Source: Octopus sinensis
Lineage: Eukaryota
Reading direction: 5' to 3'
Assembly: GCF_006345805.1 (NCBI RefSeq)
Contig: NC_043003.1
Coordinates: 91,326,001-91,390,000 of the forward strand
Length of the DNA: 64,000 bases
A model generated the notes under the pieces. It ran no database searches. It saw only the letters and a list, made by a program, of their open reading frames with translations, and was not told the DNA's origin. The position numbers and the translations under genes were made by a program. The first letter of the stretch is position 1, and each line of letters opens with the position of its first letter. Positions 3,961-61,300 of this stretch are shown piece by piece.

Positions 3961-5524
3961 CTTTCATTACCACCCCAGTTCTGAGTACAAATGTCTTGTT
4001 TTTATAAGTTTTTAATTAAAATCTTCCAAACCTTAGTCACAATTTGTTCCTAACACTAGCTGAATGATTAAGTTATTTTACTAAATTCTTTGTTATATTT
4101 GAACTGAAAGAAACAGTGCATCTCAAAATAAATACAACAAAAGGGCTAATGAATACCCCTTGTATGCATTAACCTTTTTGACTGCCAAATAAAATTTTCT
4201 AAAGTCATTCCTGTAATGTAAATTATTCACAAAAAAAAATTCCACTTTTGCAATACATTTTCAGTATCTCCTAAATGTTGTTTTCCTACCCACCAGTATA
4301 AGTATTTGATTCTTGTTATTTGATGCGAAAAAATTAAAATATGAAAAATTGTCTTTTGTGAAGTGTGGATGGGTCTCCACCTCTCACAGCAGTTTTCTTT
4401 TCTTTCCTAAATTTTAGAGTAAAACCCAATTTCTCAATTAACATAAAATTTTCTGAATTTGTCCACTGTTAAAAGGATTAACAAAAATAAAATTATCCAG
4501 CTTGATATGTCACTGAAGGAAGGTGTAATTGCCCATGACATCAGAAAAAGTAAACAGTCAAATCATTAAGTATGATCAGACTAAGTAAAACATAAGCTCA
4601 CTTATTTGCTTGTTTATGCACTAAATACTTATTCAGCTTTGAAGCTGCAATGTGAAGGTTTCTTTAACACATTCCACATAGTTGCAAGTTGGGGAAACAC
4701 TTGAGTGGTACTTTATCGATGTGGTGAAGCCAAAGCATTTGACCCGGTCATAAAAACAAAAAAGAAAGTAGTGTAATAGGTGTAAAACAACTTCCACTAA
4801 ATGAATATGACAAAAAAAATGCGCAGCAGGTTTAATGCTTTCCACAAATAGGAATCTAGAGGTATTGCTTTAAAAAATTGGCACAAATGCCTGGGCAAAC
4901 CACCAATCCTCAATCTATCATCTGAGTGTGCACCAAAGTGTTTGTAGGATCTACAAAATTTTCGCTGTGGTTGACCCGTAAGTGGGTATACCCAAGATTT
5001 CCCAGAGAATTATATGCAGCCCAAGAATCGCTATATACTATGGACCCTTAGCATATATAGAGGGATCAGTGTGGCAGCATCTTGCCTTTCATCTCGTTCT
5101 ATCCCACTGAAAAGCCAGATAGTTTTTATAAGTCTTCTACAATTATATTTTCTCCTTACAATAACCGACTCAATTTCCACTTTGACCCCTGGTCCAGATT
5201 TAATCCTGGGGATTTTCTACCCAATGCTGACAAACCTCCTAACAGAAGGATGGTCAATCAACTGAGGTCAGATATGAAATCCTCAAATTCTCCATGACTA
5301 ATGCATGTGACCAACAGTCTGTGAGAAAGTAGTTCACAAACAAAAGAACTTTACAGGGTGGTACCTGGCTCCACTCTAAAAAGGTGTTATAGTACAGGGA
5401 TACAGAATATCCAATCAGTGGGCCAAGCTAAATGACATGTAAGGCAATCTACAGTACAGAACATTAGTGCCTGTCATTATTAAATTGGCGAATTCCATCT
5501 TGTAATGTCAATTCACATGAATTA

Positions 5525-7396: not shown

Positions 7397-10300
7397 CTGT
7401 AAAAGAAAATGTATTTTTGTAAATATAATGTAAAATACTGTTCATTTTGTATAATAAACAGTAAAATGAACATGTATCAGCCATTGGCGTCAGAGTAATG
7501 GTAAATATCACACTCTAAGCATTTAGACTGAGCTTTAATATTCGAGACTCACAGCACCAAGAAATTACCGACAAACAGCTCAGTGACTCTTGAGCTCGGA
7601 AAAAATATCAGACTGACTGCAACACTTGATAGTGCATATTTAAATTACAATTCAAATAAGGAACTTTACACAAACATCTTCACATACAGACATATCAACT
7701 TTAACCAGATTTCAATTCATCACAAGAACAATAAAACACTTACCATAAAGTTTCTCTTTTCAGCCAATGTTTGGAAGCGACCATTTCCAAATTTACTGGC
7801 AGTATCAATAAACTTCAATGTTATCTTCTCCAGAGCCTTACGCTTGAAGTGAGTCAGGAGAGACTAAAAAGAAAAAGAAAAAAAAAATCGAATTACAAAA
7901 TGTTGATGGCTGCCTGGTTTAGAAGCTTGGTTACAAACCATGTCTTTTGGTTTAAATGCAAACTGTATGACACGTCTGTACAATTTATATGTGGTAGAAG
8001 CATACAAAAAGGAAAAAATACCAGCAAAATATAGACTAAGCTACAACCTCCAGTATAAACTGGTAAAGATCACAAAGAAACACTACAAATACATTCTTTC
8101 CATACATGTTCTTGCTGGATCGTCCAATCGATGCCAGCATGGAAGAGACGTTGAAACAATTATTGTTTATGCACTAAATACCTTGGCAGGTATTTAGTGC
8201 ATAAACAAGCAAATAAGTGAGCTTATGTTTTACTAAGTCTGATCATACTTAGGAAATTTCATATATTTTATAAGTTTCTGTGTGATCTCATTTTGTGTAG
8301 AACATTTAATTTTAATGGAATTCAGGATATTTACCTTACGCATAGTAAGAATCCTTTTTCTGGGTCCCATAACACAGCCTTTTAACATCAGGAAATCTTG
8401 ATTCACTTTACCATAGTGAGGGAAGCCACCGACAGGAGTGATGGATTTGTCAGTTGGATCATATTCAGTAGCAGCATTGTTTTTAACTACTTTACCTTCA
8501 TGGGTGTGAATACCACGACCAACACGATAGATTTTTTTGTTGATCTCAGTACGATGATGATAACCTTTTTGACCAGCTCTTGCTACAGAATACTGGACTC
8601 TGCTAGGATGCCAAGCACCAATACAAGCAACTTTTCGCAATCCTTTGTGAGTTTTCCTGGGCAGCTTTTTGGTATGCCAACGAGAAGTAACACCTGAAAA
8701 GATAAATTTAAATTTTTGGCACTGTCATGCTTTTAGTTGTCAGGAGGAAAGTAGAAAAAGTGTGACATCCACCTTCGTTTCTTTCCGTAGAATTTATCAA
8801 AACGCATGTAAATTTATCAAATTAAAAAACAAAAATTTATCAAAAACGCGTGTAAACATATCAAATTAATAAACGCAAATTATTTAGAATGTAAAAATAT
8901 TATTTTCAACAGAGAATTTATCAAAATAAAACAAATGAAGCTTGAAGTTAAGTTTTAAAATAAATATGATACTTATGCTCTGTAGATACTTATACTCTCT
9001 AAGGTCTCAAACACATGGATATAGCTGTCGAATTTACTCCAATAACTTTCCGAATATATCAAAATATATCAACATAACGCCACATGAATTCGATGAGATG
9101 GGTCTGAAGTAAATTTCGAGCTGTTCCATTTTCTCTTTTGTTACAATTCTTCACATGCATCCATAAACATTCTAAATGGTTGGTTGTGGCAAATGTTACC
9201 GGATCAACAAAATTTATTGAATGATTCACGGTCAAATGCCTGTGTCCTAGCTGATTGAGCGTATTGTACGAACGCGAAAGGTCAGAAATTATGGTTGTAC
9301 CAGGCAATATACGGTCTTGTATAATTTGTAAAAGAGTGTCCGCTCTTCCAATGCCACTAAAAAACATCTGGTATCTCTTTCTAAAGCGCCAAATACCCAC
9401 TGCGTTTTAACCCGATGGCCAACATATTTTCTTCTAACAAACACGCTCTCGTCTATCTCTACAATTCAGTTCGGCCCTCCGAGCTTAATGTTTTGTGCAA
9501 CATAATTTTCTGCACATATATCACGGCAAAAATTCCTCCAATCTGTTACGGCTACATTTGCTATATAACATTCCTGTCCTATTCCCTTTGCTAAATCTTT
9601 TGCCCAATACAATATATCTATAATTTGTTGACACTTCAATTTACTATTTTCTAAAAATGTTCCTTTTCTAATTGGAACTGTTTTTCTACAAGGCCTTCCA
9701 CATGACCATATTACTTCATCCGACAAATTTTTTTTCGCTATTTCACTCATGCTACCTCCACACGATATACATATTTTCTGGGTATTCAAAAGTCCATGTC
9801 TCCTAAGACAATGCTATCTGCTGTATTTATTTATAAAATGTATTTATTCATAAACTTTAAACTGAACTTGTTTTATAAACCTAGCGTGGTGGTACGTAAA
9901 TAAACGGCGTAAATTAACGAAGGTATAAACCTGACGCAAATACACAATTGACGTCCGACGTCAGATTTTTCTACTTTCACTTCTGACAACTAAAGGCATG
10001 ACAGTGCCAAATTTTTCCTTGAGTATATTAGAAATTACATAAGAAAGCCATCAGATACAAGTGGCAACACCCCCTCCGCACAACGTAAATAATACTAGTT
10101 TTCCAGTAAAACCTACTCACCTTTCATACCCTTGCCACGGGTCACACCAATTACATCAATTAATTCATCTTGCTGGAAGACATCAGCAATGGATATTGGC
10201 TTCTCCAAATTGGCTCTAGCCCACTTCACCTTATCTTCAGTGGTGCCACCATTCAGCTGAATTTCACAAATATGTGCCTTCTTGGTGCGCTTCCTGAGCT

Positions 10301-13300
10301 GGCGAATCTAAAATGTAGAATTCCAGTTCAAAGTAAGTTTGAAAGTGACATCCTTCTAAACATTTAACCATAGTTGACATACACTGCACTCATTTCAAAT
10401 AACTTTCGTAATTAAACTAAGTCTTACAATCAACAGGAAATTTTTTTATGTAGGATTTTAGTTTAGACCACTCAAATACATATTAGCTTCAGTTATCAAA
10501 CTTTGTTAAAATTGATAGTGTGAACTCACCTGAGTATGGACAATAATCCTAATGGTGTTGCAATAACGGATCAACTTTTGATAATCCTTTTCAATACTCT
10601 TCTTGCCAGCTGCATCTTGGTACTTCTTGGCGTATTTGGTATATGCCTTCCTCTTAGAGCGGGACCTTTAAAGTAGGAGGGTAATTAAGTAGCAAGTCTC
10701 ATCACGTAAGAACAGTGAGCGGAGACTCGTTACATCAAGCAACTCAGCTCAGTCAAACCAGCCACCGAAGTAAATACTAAATATGCAAGATAGTTTACAC
10801 AACCTGTGTGCCAAGCATTTAAGTAACTAGCATTGACTTCGAAGACCATTTGAGAGGAACTATACCATTGCTTATCTGCAGACTTCCCCTGCATTTATGT
10901 GGTATAGTCCTACAAGAGAAAGTCAGCACAGTTTAAGATATGCATGTTATGAACGGAGATAAAATAATCCTTCAGTATGGAAAATTTTAAAAAGTAAGAA
11001 AATTCATGAGGCTTGCTCTTGAATTTCAGATATCCTTGAAAATGAATATCGTATTTAGGAATGGTCATGTTGCCAGTTTGGCCAATAAAAGCACACACAC
11101 TATATATTTGGTGTTAATTTGCTTCAGTTTTATTTCTTAATCTTATTTCGGCCAGAGTTATTTCATCACACTTCTGTGTTGGTTCTCTTGTCTGCCTGTT
11201 GGTCCCTCTGTTGTGGTTGTTTTTGTTCCTACCAGTAGTGTTTTCCGTTTCAAGTCTACTGACTCCCTGTCCAAGAATTCTGTTGTATTCAACTTTATTT
11301 TCCATCCCATGACAACTTTTATTTGTCCTTGTGACTATGGTTATCTGTGTGTGTCCATTCCCCCTATTGTTGTATACGATTTTTCTGCTTTTGTATTTGT
11401 ATCTGTTGCTTGTGTTCTTATGTTCGTTTTCGCCGTTGTTATTGTTGCTGCTGCAATTATTGTTGAGTTGTGTTTGTTGATCTTATTGTCATACATAAAT
11501 TCCAACATATTTTTGTGACCCATCAATCTGATAGGCATTGGATGGTATTCACCTTATTAAATACAGCATAGTAGTTGAAGTATCAATTTTTAGTCTGAGT
11601 CATTGTCCTTGCTGAATTCAAATGGTAGTGAGACATCTGCCATAACAATTCTGTTATTATACCTGGGCACCTCTTTCTCTTTTGCAAGTTTGTATTGTTA
11701 CGTTTTAACCACGAGAATTTCTTCTTTAAAATGTCTATTGCACTGGCGTATAATGTGTTCTCTGCATGTATTACATCCACAAGTGTGATTCTCTCTGTTC
11801 GTGGCAATGCTTTTAATTCCTCTTAATATGCGCCTGCATTTTTCTTGTTCACTTAGTTCTTTGTAGATTTTGTTCTTTATATTCACCATCAGCTTGGCCT
11901 TTGGGGAGTTCTAGTCGTTCTACACTTGATGTGACTCTGCTAATGCATATTTTGGAGGAGACATTATTTAATGGAGCTGTTGAGTCGTCACGGTTTTTCC
12001 GTAGGCAACTGAATATAGGGTTCTTCAGCATCTTGCTAGCCTGGCTAGAGTTCACAAAGCTGAAGCAAATTAATACCAAATATATATTTTTATTGGCTAA
12101 ACTGGCAACATGACCATTCCTAAATACAGCAATATCTGTTTCAACACACGATTTCACACGAAGAATCTTGCAAAACAAATATATAAACCTGAAAATGAAG
12201 CTATGAGAAACCTTAACTCAGCACACCGAGGGTGCGATTCCAGAAATATACAGAATTTATGATTCTGCAAAATAAATATATTCTGTAATATTTCAATTAA
12301 AAAAAAAAAAAAATCAAACCTCACTCCTGTCCCCCTCCAACATATCAAGTGAAATTAAAGTGTTTTTTCTACAACAGTTTCATGCCAAACATGTAATTGA
12401 TGGTCTTTTGGAATTAAGACGTATGTAAAAATTAGTTTTTTTGCACACACAAAATGTTACAAAAGATTTTTTTTTTTTGGTAATTCGTATTTCGAAAGTT
12501 GATCCTCGATTTGACTTTTTTTTAGCTTGTCTGATTTCCGGTTGGGGCTAGTTTGTTAACTTGTATTAGAAATTTGAAAACGTTGTTTCTGTGTCAGGTT
12601 TCCTGTTTAGATACCTTTTGCACCTGCCATTTTATAATTCTATGGACGTGTGAAACTTAGTAGAGAAAACACTAATTTCACTTCGTATCACAGGCCGGAG
12701 GGGAGTCGTTTTTTGAAAAATTGAAATTTTACAATTTTTCTGAATCATAATCTCCCTATTCTCTCCGTATTTCGCCTAAAATTTTTTTTTGAAAGTGAAA
12801 ATTTAAAAAACTGGGAGGGGGGGGGGCAAATTTTGAAATGCAGATTCGGACGGAATCTCCGCCCTTGATATATAGTGTTCCTGCATTAAAAAAAGCCATT
12901 CTTTCGATATAACTCGATAAAATGAAACCATTTCACTTCGGGTATTTCCGTGCCAAATGACAGAAGCCAATGAGTTGTCCATGATCTTTAAACCCTGCCC
13001 AGTGTCTACGTTGCTTAATAGTAAAATTAACTTTTATTCCAGTTTCGTTTACTTTTTAAAAACACTGAAGGATTACCTAAGATATAATTAACTTTACTTA
13101 CCAGTTCTTATAGAAACGACGCCTGCACTCTTCTCCAAGATGTTCAGCAAAAATAGACTTGAAAGCACGTGGACCACGTGGAGTATCGATGTAGCCAGTG
13201 ACTCCAATACAGACAACAGGTGGACATTCAATAATGGTGACACCTTCCAATACCTCTTTCTTATTCACCTCTGAAATGTCAAATCATTTTAATTGATTAC

Positions 13301-15148
13301 CGAAACTAGACACTGAGTAACAAATTAGTATCGATTACTAAAATCTATCAAAAACTGGTTTAAACACTAAAATTTCAGTTTCTTAAATACCAACCCCGGT
13401 AGGTCCCCGTGCGCGCTAGCTAGTCGTGATTAGGCGATCCTCACTAAGTTTTATTTACTTTGTAAAAAATTGTTTTAGTGTTTTATATACTTTGCTACGT
13501 AGTCGTTGTAGGATCGCATAGTAACGACTAGCTGGCGCGGATGCGCGAGAACGCGCACCGGGACCAAAGTACCAAACCCCACACTGCAAATCCAACTTTG
13601 GGGCTAATGCAGATTCGCATCGGATTGCTACGCTTTTTATGTCGGACATAACGGAATAAGCTACTACTTAAGAAGAGTGGTCCCGCTGCGCGCTAGCTAT
13701 TCGTGACCAGTCGATCCTTTGTGGTTTTGTTTTATTTTATTTTGTTTAAAATTATTTTGTGTTATATTTACTTTGCTAGGTAGTCGTAGGATCGCCTGGT
13801 CACGACTAGCTAGCGCACTCTTAAGTAGTACCGAATTATGATTTTGCTTACTTTGAAGATATCGTAGCGAACTGAACATATGCAATACAAAAACATTGAA
13901 ATTAATCTAAATTAAATATACACCATTTTATGAGAAACTTTATTTTGGTTGTATACTGTCAACTTAACGTGACAGTATACAACCACTATATCGCTCCACC
14001 ACCGTACATATCTGAGATATTTAGAATTTTTTTTTATTTTGCATATTCGTAATCTGACATTGTGTGTTATATATTGGAACCCTAACGTTTCATAGCAAAA
14101 AATGCATTTTTCAAGGACAGGTGCGAACTTGCATTAGCCCCCATCATTTCATGAGAAACAAAAAAATGTTTAATAATTTCACCCTCTCCCCCAATTTTAA
14201 ACTTTTTCATCCATTTATTTATCGCTATCCGTTTACTCATAAAATCTTAGTCAACTAAATTTGGTGGCCCTATAGAAGACCGTACTGTTGATTTTAGCCT
14301 TTGAAAATGGGGTTTCTTGCATATTAGGAATCTGTCATCTAAAACGGAAAATAATTTCGATAAAACTCAAAATTTTTTTTTTTTCATATACGTAATCTAA
14401 AACTCAAATTTTTTTTTTTTTTATATTCGTAATCTAAAACTCAAAATTTTTTTTTTTTTATATTCGTAATCTAAAACGTGGGGATCCGATTTTTTTTCTG
14501 TTCTTTTTAATAAAATTGCATTTTTCAAGGAGAGGTGCGAAACCGCAGCGATCAGTTTTTGCCTCCATTTCATTTCTAACGAAAGTTTTATATTTTCAAC
14601 TAAATTTTTGAAAATTGTCAAAAGAGAGAAAAAAAATTTACATGCTGCGCGAGAGAAATTTAAAAAGAAAATTATGAACATATGATGGGCTTAAAATAAA
14701 AAAAAAAAAGTGAAGTTTTTAATGTAAAACCATCGGATGCACGTGGCGGAGGAATGTCGGCCATCTTCATCGACAGCATCGTAGCAGGAGAACATTAATT
14801 AAAATGCGACTAATTACTCAAAATATAACTTACTTGAGCCAGGTCTGTCAACTTCGCGGACGATATGAGTCATCCCAGCCTTATAACCCATAAAAGCGGT
14901 TAAATGAACAGGCTTTTTGGGATCATCTTTTGGAAATGCCTTGATTTTGCCCTTATGACGTTGACTTCTCTTTTTGGGCAGAAAGCCCTTGGAGCCATGC
15001 CGTGGGGCAGAAAATTTACGATGAGACTGAAATGATTAAAAGAATAGGCTCAACATACATAAAAAACTGAAGGGTTTTAAGTAGTATTAATAAATTTGAC
15101 GACATAATTTGTGTAGTGGAGCAACGAGAGACGATGACTACTCACCAT
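7355..15148 (-). CDS. RPL3: 60S ribosomal protein L3 (uL3), 8 coding exons, 402 aa
   Basis: Manual splice reconstruction, all GT-AG: 15148-15146 (ATG only), 15026-14834, 13270-13102, 10665-10530, 10307-10121, 8693-8335, 7863-7744, 7396-7355; total 1209 nt. Protein [21 protein letters not shown]...[13 protein letters not shown]...[15 protein letters not shown]...[13 protein letters not shown] has the uL3 hallmark motifs. Confidence 0.98.
7470..7600 (-). ncRNA. Candidate box H/ACA snoRNA in RPL3 intron 7
   Basis: About 130 nt hairpin-hinge-hairpin-tail. Hairpin 1: CGAGCTCA/TGAGTCTCG and CACTGAG/CTTGGTG. H box ATATTA at 7541-7536. Hairpin 2: TCAGTC/GGCTGA and TTAGAGTG/TACTCTGA. ACA at 7475-7473, 14 nt below the pocket top. 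Ends about 73 nt before the 3' splice site. Confidence 0.62.
7744..7863 (-). CDS. RPL3: RPL3 exon 7
   Basis: [40 protein letters not shown]|gtaagt, 120 nt. Confidence 0.97.
8335..8693 (-). CDS. RPL3: RPL3 exon 6
   Basis: [30 protein letters not shown]...[11 protein letters not shown]|gtaaat, 359 nt. Confidence 0.98.
8718..10008 (-). mobile_element. Merlin/IS1016-IS1595 superfamily DNA transposon in RPL3 intron 5
   Basis: TIRs GGCACTGTCATGC(T/C)TTTAGTTGTCAG...; perfect 8-bp TSD AAATTTTT (8710-8717 and 10009-10016); broken transposase 9789->9059 with [48 protein letters not shown]. Confidence 0.92.
10121..10307 (-). CDS. RPL3: RPL3 exon 5
   Basis: [21 protein letters not shown]...[12 protein letters not shown], 187 nt. 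Confidence 0.97.
10530..10665 (-). CDS. RPL3: RPL3 exon 4
   Basis: [15 protein letters not shown]...IRIIVHTQ|gtgagt, 136 nt. Confidence 0.96.
11051..12127. mobile_element. About 1.08 kb segment bounded by 70-80 bp inverted repeats in RPL3 intron 3
   Basis: 11051-11130 is the reverse complement of 12057-12127, with few mismatches and one indel; interior has decayed ORF-like sequence on the minus strand. Confidence 0.6.
13102..13270 (-). CDS. RPL3: RPL3 exon 3
   Basis: [17 protein letters not shown]...[11 protein letters not shown], 169 nt, ag/gt flanks. Confidence 0.97.
13402..13830. mobile_element. Two tandem related palindromic MITE-like units in RPL3 intron 2
   Basis: Units 13402-13565 and 13662-13830; arms GCGCTAGCTA.TCGTGA..AG.CGATCCT / AGGATCGC..GT.ACGACTAGCT.GCGC around AT-rich cores. 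Confidence 0.65.
14834..15026 (-). CDS. RPL3: RPL3 exon 2
   Basis: tttcag|[20 protein letters not shown]...VREVDRPGS|gtaagt, 193 nt. Confidence 0.97.
15146..15148 (-). CDS. RPL3: RPL3 exon 1 coding part (ATG only)
   Basis: Minus strand ...gctgtgATG|gtgagt, downstream of a pyrimidine TOP tract. Confidence 0.9.
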
Positions 15149-50979: not shown

Positions 50980-51545
50980 AATATATATATATATATATAT
51001 TTATATATAATTCAAAGAGAGTTAGAGGTTATGAATCCAATCAACTAAGGATAGTATCTATCCAATATACTGTTGTTAGAATACCCAATTAATACACAGG
51101 TGTTGGTTATTGCATGGCAATTACACTACTGATTATAATAATTAGGCGAGGGTAATAAGTGGTTTTTACCCTTAATTTATATGGCAGGAAGAAAATGGAG
51201 GGAATCCAGAGGTAGTATTCATCAGCTGTTAGACATTATATTATGTCTATTTATTTATTTTAAACAGTTCAGGTAATATATAAATACATGTGTAAAGTAC
51301 TAGTAATTTCTAGAATAGAGAAAGAAGAGCAGTTTCTTACAGCTGTTTCAGCCAAGAGGTCACAGTACCCCACATGTTATTGCCATCTTTTCAGTGTACT
51401 GTAGTAATCTGTAGATTAAATTAGGGTACTTGGGTATGCCTCTAGGTTTCATCAGAGAGTTTTATAAGATAGTCCAAGAAGTTCATAGGGATAATTTATG
51501 CATATGTAAATATATATCATCATCATCATCATCATTGTTTAACGT

Positions 51546-58342: not shown

Positions 58343-61300
58343 AAGAGGTCTTAGGCCAGCAGTGATTGGGGTCTGAAAGTACACTGTAAGCCTAAACCCC
58401 TTATGAACAAGAAACCCAGGGTAACCCCATAAACTGGCCTCCCCATTATAATATTAACTGCTCTACATCTTAGAGTGAGCTTCTCCTCTGGATTTATGTA
58501 TTTCTACAAACGATATATATATATATATGAGAGGTTGGTACCTAGAAAACCCAAAGAGTGATAGGTAATGCTAAATAAGTGCTATGGACAGACCATAGTT
58601 AAACTCTTGGTTCGATAATGATATGAGTGAGGAGTCTAATGTTGGTCTTGTATAAGCATGTATATATATGTTAGACAAAATGAGATAACAAGGCCAAGGC
58701 TGTGAGGAGTTTTCAGGACATTTATAAGGAAAAAGATATAGATATAGTTTTACAGCTGTTCCTGGGATATTATGGATATCCCTTCATCAGAGACAATGTG
58801 AGATGGATAAATAGAGGTAAATATTTGAGTTTGAAATAAGGAATCATTATGGAAAAGGAGGAGATAGGGAATATAGAAGGAAATAAGAGAATGAAATTAG
58901 AAATAAAATATAAAATATATAAAGATATTATAGTTGCAGTTCTATTATTCGAGGAAAGTGGTGTATAGAAGAGGTAAAAAAGTTTCCTGTACATGGTATG
59001 TAAGTTCATATTTAGTCATTTCAAAGTATGAAGCCATGGATTCTGTGTTGCTCATTTGAAAGGGTCTTGTGGAGTGAATTATTAAAATTTGAGAATGTAT
59101 TGGTAGTACTTGTGGATAGATGGTAGGGGGAGATGTGTATGATTAGAATGAGGAGATAGGTCAAAATGAAGACAGGAAGAGAAAATGAGAAGAAAGAGAG
59201 AAAAAGAAAAAATGAAAGAAAAAAGAGAAAAATATGAAAAGAGTGAAAACAGTTAAGAAAGTGCAAAAGAAGTGAGAAAAGGAGTGTTAGTTGGTGGTCA
59301 AGATAATGTGAGGGGAAGATGGGAGAGGAGTGAGGGAGGGGTAGGAAGAGATGAGCAGGTAAGGAATGAATAAGTGTGAGATATGTGAATAGGGATGATA
59401 TGATAGAGCTGCATTAAGGGATAGGTAGAGAAAAGATATGGGCGGGGTGATACCAAATTGTGTAGTAGTTTTAGTAGTAAATTTTAAAGTGGATTGAAGA
59501 ATACAGGGTTGTCAAATTTCAATAAATAGATGTATGTAATTGTATATGTTAGAGTGGTTGGTAGGAATCAGAGAGGAGGAAAGAAGGTGTAATGACATAC
59601 ATATGTGTGCACACTTGTACATATACATATGCACATATACACACATACATATATATGCATATACATACACATACATATATATACATGCATACTCATGTGC
59701 ATTCATGAATGTATATGTGCATACATATTCAAATATATGCAAACACACATACATATGCACAGGTGCAAACATGCTTACACAGTCACACGCATGTGCACAT
59801 ACAGGTATATACGTCTACATATATACACATACACACACTCTCTCATATTTGTATACACATATGCATGTACGTATACATACACACACATATATATATATAT
59901 ATTTATACATACATATGACCACATACATATACATACACAAATATAAATATGGATGTCCATGAGCATGCATGTATATATATGTATGTATATGTATATGAGT
60001 ATGTATATATATGCATGTGTGTGTATATGTATGTATGTATGCATATGTGTGCATGTATATGTATGTGTGTGCACACATACGTATGTTATTATTCTGCTAC
60101 TTTTCATCCTATTTTTTACACTGTCAGTTATTTCTCCCTTACCTCATTCCAATTTATATCATTAATCACCCCTCAACCCTACCAAATTCCTACAGTTGTC
60201 ACCTACTCTTCCTTTTACTCGGCCTTCCCGCTTATCCCTCAACACTTCATTATAGTCTCTATCCCACCCATTCCTTTCTCACCATTTTTTCATTCTCTTG
60301 CACATTTTTGAAAATTATAGTGCAGAATATATCTATAAATTCTTAATTCACTCTATATATATACAGATACATCTAAACGTTGTTTTTATAAGGGAGTTTA
60401 TGTAAGTATATCAATTTTCTACCATTAGGGTTTTCTACCATTAAGGTTCATTCATTTGTTCATTTAAGTCTTGTTGTTAAATAAAAAATTAGCTGTGGTT
60501 GTCTAGAATGTTTTGAATTTTGGTTGCATAGAAATGAGTCTAGAGAATAGTGGTAAGGGAGAATATAGGCTGAATATAATTTAAAAAGAAACCTTGACCC
60601 ACCTACCCTAATGTATGACATTTATAGTTTGAGGAGGTGATTTATATAAGGCTCTAAATCAGGGCTGTTCTTGCTAAAGCATGACAAACATGATAAACCA
60701 TTACTATTTAGTTAGAAAACAACTTGCTGAAAAAAATGAGAAAGAAATCACTTGAATATATTCAAGGAACCCTCAACATAACACAACAGACATATACTAA
60801 ATGGTGGTGGTGGTAGTTGTTGTTGTCATTGCTGTTGTCATTGTTGTATTACTCCAGGTCAACCTTGATCAAGCAGAGCTATGTTCAAAGGCATTCCAGC
60901 AACAACCATCTCATCTTTTGGTGAGGTATCTAGGGCTATTATTGGCAAATGTGTCCTTTTTTTAATATTTAACAGAGGTGTGGTTTGAGAAAGAGTTGGT
61001 TGCTATTTTTGGTACATCAGTGACCATATAGATGCTTCCTTATTGACTCAGTTACAGGTGACACTGTTTAAATCTGCCTGTGTTACCTATTTAAGGTATT
61101 TAAAGTTGGATAGCCTTCCTGCTGTCAACCACCATCACTGAGTAAAGGCAAAATAATCAATAGATATGATTATATTCATGGTTTGCTGGGTCAAATCCAT
61201 GGCAGATGTCTCATGATGCCTCTAAACAGTTCTTTTACATAACTGTATATTCAGGAAAGTCACCAGCAATAGGTATCTTAAAATAACAATAGCAGTAGCA

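Follow-up and report, generated by a model that had tools for sequence, protein, structure and literature searches.

RPL3 and its third intron in the octopus

The 64,000-nt stretch of octopus DNA analyzed here (the window) carries, on its minus strand, an RPL3 gene of eight exons. The peptide encoded by exon 3 (13102..13270, minus strand) is 96% identical to RPL3 of Octopus bimaculoides, and the octopus assembly (G000) contains only one RPL3 copy above 57% identity. RPL3-like copies at 57% identity on contig C9002 of this assembly (L221, L222) probably belong to non-host DNA. Exon 3, whose donor GT (13101-13100) is common to the two splice forms described below, is separated from exon 4 (10530..10665) by the 2436-nt intron 3 (10666..13101), and the normal joint skips 2436 nt. 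The intron interrupts the Trp codon that follows RFYKN, and related loci have an intron at the same position; this split of the W in RFYKNW is the orthologous intron position characteristic of RPL3 intron-3 AS-NMD. The normal acceptor region (10666..10688) comprises a branch A at 10685, predicted from consensus alone, a short pyrimidine tract and an AAG.

An earlier reading of the sequence alone had placed a second acceptor within this intron, and its coordinates are exact. The AG at 10911-10910 (minus strand) lies 244 nt 5' of the exon-4 acceptor and, together with a pyrimidine tract and a predicted branch A at 10923, forms the alternative acceptor (10910..10926). When exon 3 is joined to this AG, 29 new codons are read before an in-frame TAA (10821-10819), as had been claimed. 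Four later exon junctions follow this stop, and the exon 4/5 junction lies 289 nt downstream, well beyond the 50-55 nt that a stop must exceed ahead of a later junction in AS-NMD. The resulting 244-nt exon-4 extension (10666..10909) is single-copy in the octopus genome, as is the 270-nt region around it. It is also richer in GC than the rest of the 2436-nt intron (41.0% vs 34.8%), in agreement with the earlier reading, and its GC content is reached by 1% of equal-sized windows in the intron.

Elsewhere in the gene, positions 7471-7601 (minus strand, intron 7) have the form of a two-hairpin RNA with an ANANNA hinge and an ACA near the end, and match the H/ACA family ceN100 weakly (35 bits, gathering score 80, E 0.001); this is likely an unannotated H/ACA snoRNA. 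Broken reading frames resembling transposase fragments are present at ~9050-9800 (intron 5) and ~4900-5300. Two related stretches of inverted-repeat character at ~13400-13880 (intron 2) look like a small non-autonomous element, and a further hairpin is found at 13932-14001.

The upstream acceptor is used in spliced RNA

Eight of 24 sequencing runs were examined, and seven of these (X1, X5, X9, X11, X12, X13 and X20) yielded contigs with normal RPL3 exon joints. None of the runs is annotated as RNA; we took the seven to be RNA on the strength of these joints and of the absence of a retrocopy from G000. Intron 4 is without cover in six of the seven.

The junction 13102->10909, singled out beforehand by the sequence-only reading, is present with GT..AG borders in X11, X12, X13 and X20. 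These contigs, in which 2192 nt are skipped and exon 4 is extended, thus come from four of the seven RNA-like runs, four studies and organism labels A and B, and no retrocopy able to fake the joint was found in G000. Their depths (19.2, 21.2, 51 and 27.4, vs 519.6, 587.5, 5000 and 3617.9 for the normal joint) amount to 0.8-3.6% of both junctions taken together, contig depth being a poor and rough measure. X1, X5 and X9 yielded unspliced contigs across 10909 and through a large part of intron 3 but none with the junction, which does not imply absence because contigs drop rare variants.

The DNA-like run X18 (organism D) has no joint and leaves exon 3 uncovered, so it is not usable as a control. 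Relative to the window, it has 6 events over 222 nt from intron 4 and one in the 244-nt segment (p 0.048), which is too few to count; the latter removes 2 nt from the apical portion of the rod fold described below. At 11018-12709, ~1690 nt of intron 3 are swapped for 35 other bases in this run.

The contigs confirm that the upstream acceptor in octopus RPL3 is real and used, and that it adds 244 nt and a premature stop to the transcript. The proposed alternative 3' splice site with a premature-stop isoform in intron 3, as in mammalian RPL3, is borne out by both contigs and coordinates. By analogy with mammals, the product is in all likelihood an NMD isoform, and autoregulation of octopus RPL3 through this isoform would follow by the same analogy.

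A hairpin with a 3x1 internal loop recurs in the orthologous intron

For comparison of this intron between lineages, a pattern anchored on the exon-4 acceptor yielded 92 metagenome loci, five of which (L014, L059, L079, L082 and L089) were left out as their peptide is not RPL3. No convincing similarity emerged when the octopus segment was locally aligned to 68 intron ends (best z 3.9). The intron ends do contain a repeated hairpin, which escaped alignment because its stems are free and its loop has just 8 nt. A C-G pair closes the lower stem, C-K-C lies opposite a single base, and a U-A pair opens the upper stem, so that the internal loop is a 3x1 motif, C[CKC]U / A[H]G.

The descriptor of this motif was first drawn by eye from the same sequences, octopus included; controls were therefore run on one representative of each of 36 clusters without mutually alignable sequence. 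Over 69 distinct intron ends, the descriptor has 106 matches vs 12.6 in shuffles. In an unbiased scan of 659 3x1-loop keys, CCTCT came out on top (28 vs 1.45 expected, 19 clusters), CCGCT was found 13 times vs 0.9 expected (9 clusters), and the next key had a p of 1e-3. The motif occurs 46 times in 9,642 nt of intron ends, compared with 5 times in the same 9,642 nt of reverse strand, 6 times in 22,013 nt upstream and 11 times in 30,025 nt downstream. When CC[TG]CT words were chosen by sequence alone, 41 of 59 had a pairing partner that left a 1-nt opposite strand, vs 5, 6 and 8 of 59 for opposite strands of 0, 2 and 3 nt; among 44 further introns of these genes, the figure was 2 of 16 (p 8e-5). 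Given this one-base excess, the motif is not a by-product of pyrimidine tracts.

Within one large clade (33 loci, 22 distinct, 19 aligned after omission of 3 near-duplicates), 13 of 43 pairs change on both sides, a count that relatedness may inflate; the shuffle mean was 5.0 and 0 of 500 shuffles reached the observed value. RNAalifold draws the last motif copy of these 19 members unaided, and the unpaired CUC of this copy is invariant in the clade. A covariance model (R1) built from 32 non-octopus copies recovers held-out copies in L024, L020 and L065 and has no matches in the orthologous intron of the negative loci. Covariation in the corresponding alignment A3 is circular for six of eight pairs; the two outer pairs, the only ones not selected for, are paired in 30 of 32 and 22 of 32 copies.

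Of 29 animal RPL3 clusters that cannot be aligned with one another, 25 have the motif, frequently as 2-4 copies, where the orthologous intron has its 3' end; the 29 clusters comprise animals other than mammals, and no mollusc clade other than that of the octopus. According to taxon labels inferred from the tree and the nearest named protein, the carriers include insects, copepods, a nematode-like locus, a chelicerate-like locus, fish, other unplaced animals and the octopus, as well as a large unlabelled clade placed beside cephalopods. Labels given by eye to two groups, sponge and cnidarian, turned out to be wrong: one group is copepod-like and the other is unplaced. Three loci, L026, L028 and L057, hold this intron alone and represent either intron-retaining transcripts or genes from which all the others have been lost. 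The motif is missing from four of the 29 animal clusters (L027, L055, L067 and L056, the last of which has only 162 nt), from all five non-animal clusters, and from both RPL3L-like loci of a second vertebrate clade (L011 and L021), a label that rests on the tree and on the missing U83B snoRNA, which is present in the fish-like L050 and L065.

The position of the motif is also constrained, with the last copy ending at most 90 nt from the normal AG in 21 of the 25 lineages. In the fish-like record L064, otherwise intron-free, exon 3 is joined to a point 251 nt before exon 4. This point follows the AG that in L050 and L065 lies 234 and 224 nt, respectively, ahead of exon 4 and sits in the lower stem at the foot of the first motif copy. 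The extension is thus of similar length in vertebrate and octopus and contains the motif in each. We consider it very probable that the motif is functional and under selection.

The main octopus copy is the hairpin at 10689..10733 (minus strand), the second of two that the sequence-only reading had pointed out. As stated there, it lies just 5' of the canonical acceptor. Its foot and the predicted branch A (10685) are 4 nt apart. It is predicted to consist of a lower stem (10728-10722 with 10700-10694), a loop in which C10721-G10720-C10719 face U10701, and an upper stem (10718-10715 with 10705-10702), with pair probabilities of at least 0.95. Judged from these comparisons of sequence, the conserved part that the earlier reading missed is the internal loop of this hairpin, repeated in this intron across animals. 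R1, to which the octopus did not contribute, ranks 10727-10695 first in both strands of the 64-kb window (26.8 bits, E 2.4e-4). The next-best match (58480-58534, plus strand, 17.9 bits, E 0.045) lies outside RPL3 and may be due to chance. A second, degenerate (3x2) copy is predicted at the foot of a long rod (10746..10861), with C10857 [CUC] U10853 paired to A10753 [CU] G10750; it is not detected by R1.

Likeness to C-loops and to rRNA helix 96

C-loops, described in rRNA helices, the thrS operator and viroids (PMC2952876, PMC9516175), likewise have a 3x1 asymmetric loop in which, according to the accessible portions of these papers, the first loop C faces the A of a U-A pair and the third C faces the G of a C-G pair. 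The features listed in the part of PMC9516175 available to us include an asymmetric loop between two helices, the longer strand of which starts with C, and this is the arrangement of the intron motif. The cross pairs are cWS (C-A) and tWH, for which C-G is allowed in the same source, and the bases of the intron motif are compatible with both at the sequence level. The positions of the cross pairs are fixed by the descriptor, yet CCKCT stood out in the unbiased scan. We infer that the intron loop would fold as a C-loop. The middle base differs: it is A in the C-loop, as far as described, and 28 U, 13 G, 4 A and 1 C among the 46 intron copies. Unlike known C-loops, the intron motif occurs as tandem copies in a pre-mRNA intron and is known from sequence alone.

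The descriptor is matched by helix 96 of archaeal 23S rRNA at 120 of the 120 loci that were long enough (121 were fetched, with the 5' strand preselected). The excerpted text of PMC2952876 lists a C-loop at positions 2716-2722/2760-2764 of Haloarcula 23S. We take these positions, which follow the sarcin-ricin loop, to be helix 96. Other rRNAs depart from the descriptor: in E. coli, one closing pair of helix 96 differs; in yeast, the helix-96 bulge contains adenosines (PMC2275155, in the portion available); and helix 96 of octopus 28S has another 3x1 loop, G[CAA]C / G[C]C. No convincing descriptor match was found near the sarcin-ricin loop of octopus 28S. The motif is accordingly not shared with the uL3 site of the organism's own rRNA, the exact match being to archaeal 23S only, and we rejected exact mimicry of the octopus's own rRNA, as its 28S helix 96 has other bases and closing pairs. 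The motif may nevertheless work like an rRNA-type protein site, with no match to the rRNA of the animal itself. The passages seen of PMC2995063 and PMC9508819 document uL3 at H94 and H95 of domain VI. In the ribosome, uL3 probably also contacts H96, although no such contact was found in the accessible papers.

Two further observations concern helix 96 and 28S. In alignment A1 (the L002 clade), columns 9-39 form a third, very conserved hairpin upstream of two motif copies, with a loop, G[CAA]C / G[A or C]C, of the form seen at helix 96 of octopus 28S copies. A 28S locus on contig C6303 of G000 (L094) is AT-richer than the octopus copies, 70-87% like them, and probably represents non-host DNA.

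A proposed sensor of free uL3 and its alternatives

We propose that surplus nuclear uL3 would bind the motif hairpin or hairpins of intron 3. The bound hairpin, with its foot 4 nt from the predicted branch point, would keep U2/SF3b off the normal acceptor; the stretch by the branch A is where U2/SF3b must hold. Bound uL3 would thus weaken the normal acceptor, so that the spliceosome takes the upstream AG or retains the intron, and the unproductive RPL3 product would be removed by NMD. On the whole, we favor this scheme, in which a stop-carrying exon-4 extension and a shared motif likely to bind free uL3 divert splicing towards decay. The same measured preference applies to two of its parts, namely that uL3 is probably the direct ligand of the motif and that the block of the normal acceptor is rather probably the working step. 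The broadest version seems to us evenly balanced: that an as yet undescribed array of C-loop hairpins is common to intron 3 of animal RPL3 genes, is nearer to the archaeal helix-96 loop than to the animals' own rRNA, and would have been kept since before the protostome/deuterostome split as a direct sensor of free uL3 and, in vertebrate muscle, of RPL3L.

According to the accessible text of PMC12811116, RPL3L can be crosslinked to intron 3 of RPL3 and promotes the NMD form, which makes up 1.4% in human control cells and 42% without NMD. In muscle cells of that study, RPL3 itself had hardly any effect on the isoform, and human CLIP-qPCR, of low resolution, gave an RPL3L signal upstream of the alternative acceptor. 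Unlike this signal, the motif copies in fish and octopus begin at or downstream of the alternative acceptor.

The best-surviving alternative, which we regard as unlikely though worth weighing, keeps the splicing and the motif and has the latter read by another protein, be it a splicing factor, an assembly protein or a different ribosomal protein, or acting by shape alone, with uL3 involved indirectly. The published mammalian circuit, as far as it could be consulted, works through hnRNP H1 and G runs and also involves KHSRP and NPM (PMC3177206). Unrelated proteins bind C-loops (PMC9516175) and ribosomal-protein genes of the worm cross-regulate (PMC4937301), each according to the available excerpts, and the animal's own H96 loop is unlike the intron motif. 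Against an indirect role stand the crosslinking of a uL3 paralog to intron 3 and the confinement of the motif to a single RPL3 intron, with its absence from other introns of the same genes and from RPL3L-like loci.

Alternatively, the segment itself could be a two-state switch that hides and exposes the upstream AG, an idea that we consider improbable. The sequence-only reading was right that the 244-nt segment is structured (fold z -2.63; 2 of 200 shuffles fold as well) and that its two named hairpins fold in isolation, with z of -4.0 and -4.4 for windows chosen after seeing them. The first of these, hairpin 1 (10856..10910), and the long rod with the second motif copy are mutually exclusive, competing predicted folds within about 2 kcal/mol, and in fish the alternative AG is likewise located in a stem, that of the first motif copy. 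The ranking of the two folds, however, flips with the folding window. Pairing probabilities of hairpin 1 are 0.81-0.99 in unrestricted folding and 0.00-0.29 with a pair span of at most 160 nt, so that it has no fixed fold; the second motif copy has probabilities of 0.01-0.19 (at +2.1 kcal/mol) and 0.63-0.90, respectively. Whichever fold dominates, the unpaired probability of AG|G is no higher than 0.34-0.44, and that of the pyrimidine tract is lower in the rod fold (0.09 vs 0.23-0.25). The claim that hairpin 1 buries or frees the alternative AG is unsupported because both folds are predicted to leave most of the acceptor paired. The converse idea, that the second motif copy exposes the AG on forming, was rejected as well, since folding does not free the acceptor in the rod. 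The additional pairing TGACTT/AAGTCA (10925/10839) had been suggested to contribute and has a probability of 0.00. Finally, conservation, expected of both hairpins by the earlier reading, holds for the internal loop of the second one, which recurs across animals, and fails for hairpin 1, which has no counterpart among the 68 other intron ends.

It is very improbable that use of the upstream AG amounts to splicing noise at a cryptic site of a strongly expressed gene, with incidental octopus hairpins. The low junction depth would agree with noise, as would the rank of this AG among the best three pyrimidine-tract acceptors of the 71 YAGs in intron 3 and a descriptor match of equal score to the octopus copy at 51439 on the plus strand. 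However, no further GT..AG alternative joint was listed in the seven RNA-like runs, though two YAGs of intron 3 score as well as or above the one used, and distant animals have the same motif in the same intron with an extension of similar length (224-251 nt in fish). As the motif appears to span phyla, noise was already disfavored.

The least probable reading, that the segment is an intronic H/ACA-like (or C/D) small RNA, can draw on snoRNAs in RPL3 introns (U83B in L050 and L065, the H/ACA-like RNA in octopus intron 7) and on a guide-pocket-like internal loop in hairpin 1, and fails because the segment is spliced into mRNA, has no ANANNA hinge between two hairpins (the AGATAA at 10877, read earlier as the hinge, sits within hairpin 1), no ACA 3 nt from the end or elsewhere after the last hairpin, no C box with a D box 3' of it (every CTGA is upstream of the C-like box, and the C-box-like GTGATGA at 10705, with no CTGA downstream, is not kept in other lineages), and no Rfam match at gathering score or at E<=5. 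A SECIS element was set aside because the in-frame stop is TAA.

Comparison with known systems

RPL3 autoregulation has reportedly been in print since 2005, in the work of Cuccurese. Besides mammals, unproductive RPL3 splicing has been reported in worm (PMC4937301) and fly (PMC2689934), in the sections of these papers open to us. Thus, the event itself is known, and the octopus adds a mollusc to the animals that make an unproductive RPL3 isoform. The intron-3 motif in animal RPL3, on the other hand, appears to be new. No Rfam family covers it in the octopus window, and 20 related loci returned only snoRNAs in other introns. The literature on RPL3 splicing and structure, C-loops and uL3 yielded no description in its accessible part. 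There is likewise nothing on the element in the portions available of PMC8047918, PMC4114680, PMC12218528, PMC5640933 and bioRxiv 2022.03.10.483802, and the passages seen of PMC4937301 state that rpl-3 yielded no stretch of conserved sequence. PMC12811116 (2026), in which the word 'motif' is absent, ties RPL3L binding to RPL3 intron 3 to neonatal cardiomyopathy and, in its available text, names no motif. The motif supplies exact bases to mutate, to bind and to block with oligonucleotides in cells and model animals.

The closest parallel is the mammalian RPL3 intron-3 AS-NMD (PMC3177206; PMC12811116; Cuccurese 2005 as cited there). In what these sources could show us, it shares with the octopus the same intron, an upstream 3' splice site, the extension of exon 4, the premature stop and the low steady-state share of the isoform. 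The octopus case differs in coming from a mollusc and in the repeated structured motif that we propose; the mammalian accounts, as far as available, speak of G runs and offer neither a motif nor an RNA structure for uL3 or RPL3L binding. In yeast, the ribosomal protein L30 (RPL32 in the old name) recognizes an internal loop of the pre-mRNA that encodes it, by binding to it, and alters the splicing, which resembles our scheme with another protein and a purine-rich loop; the fungal ribosomal-protein motifs in the accessible part of the same source do not include an RPL3 motif (PMC5640933).

The L10ARE of RPL10A/rpl-1 likewise lies between two alternative splice sites of an orthologous intron, is conserved from worm to vertebrates, and according to the excerpts of PMC4937301 it is bound by the gene's own protein, a property that the octopus motif would share if uL3 is its ligand. 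As described in these excerpts, the L10ARE is an alignable 39-nt stretch that acts on 5' splice sites, whereas the RPL3 motif is a 5+3-nt loop with free stems, present in 1-4 copies near 3' splice sites.
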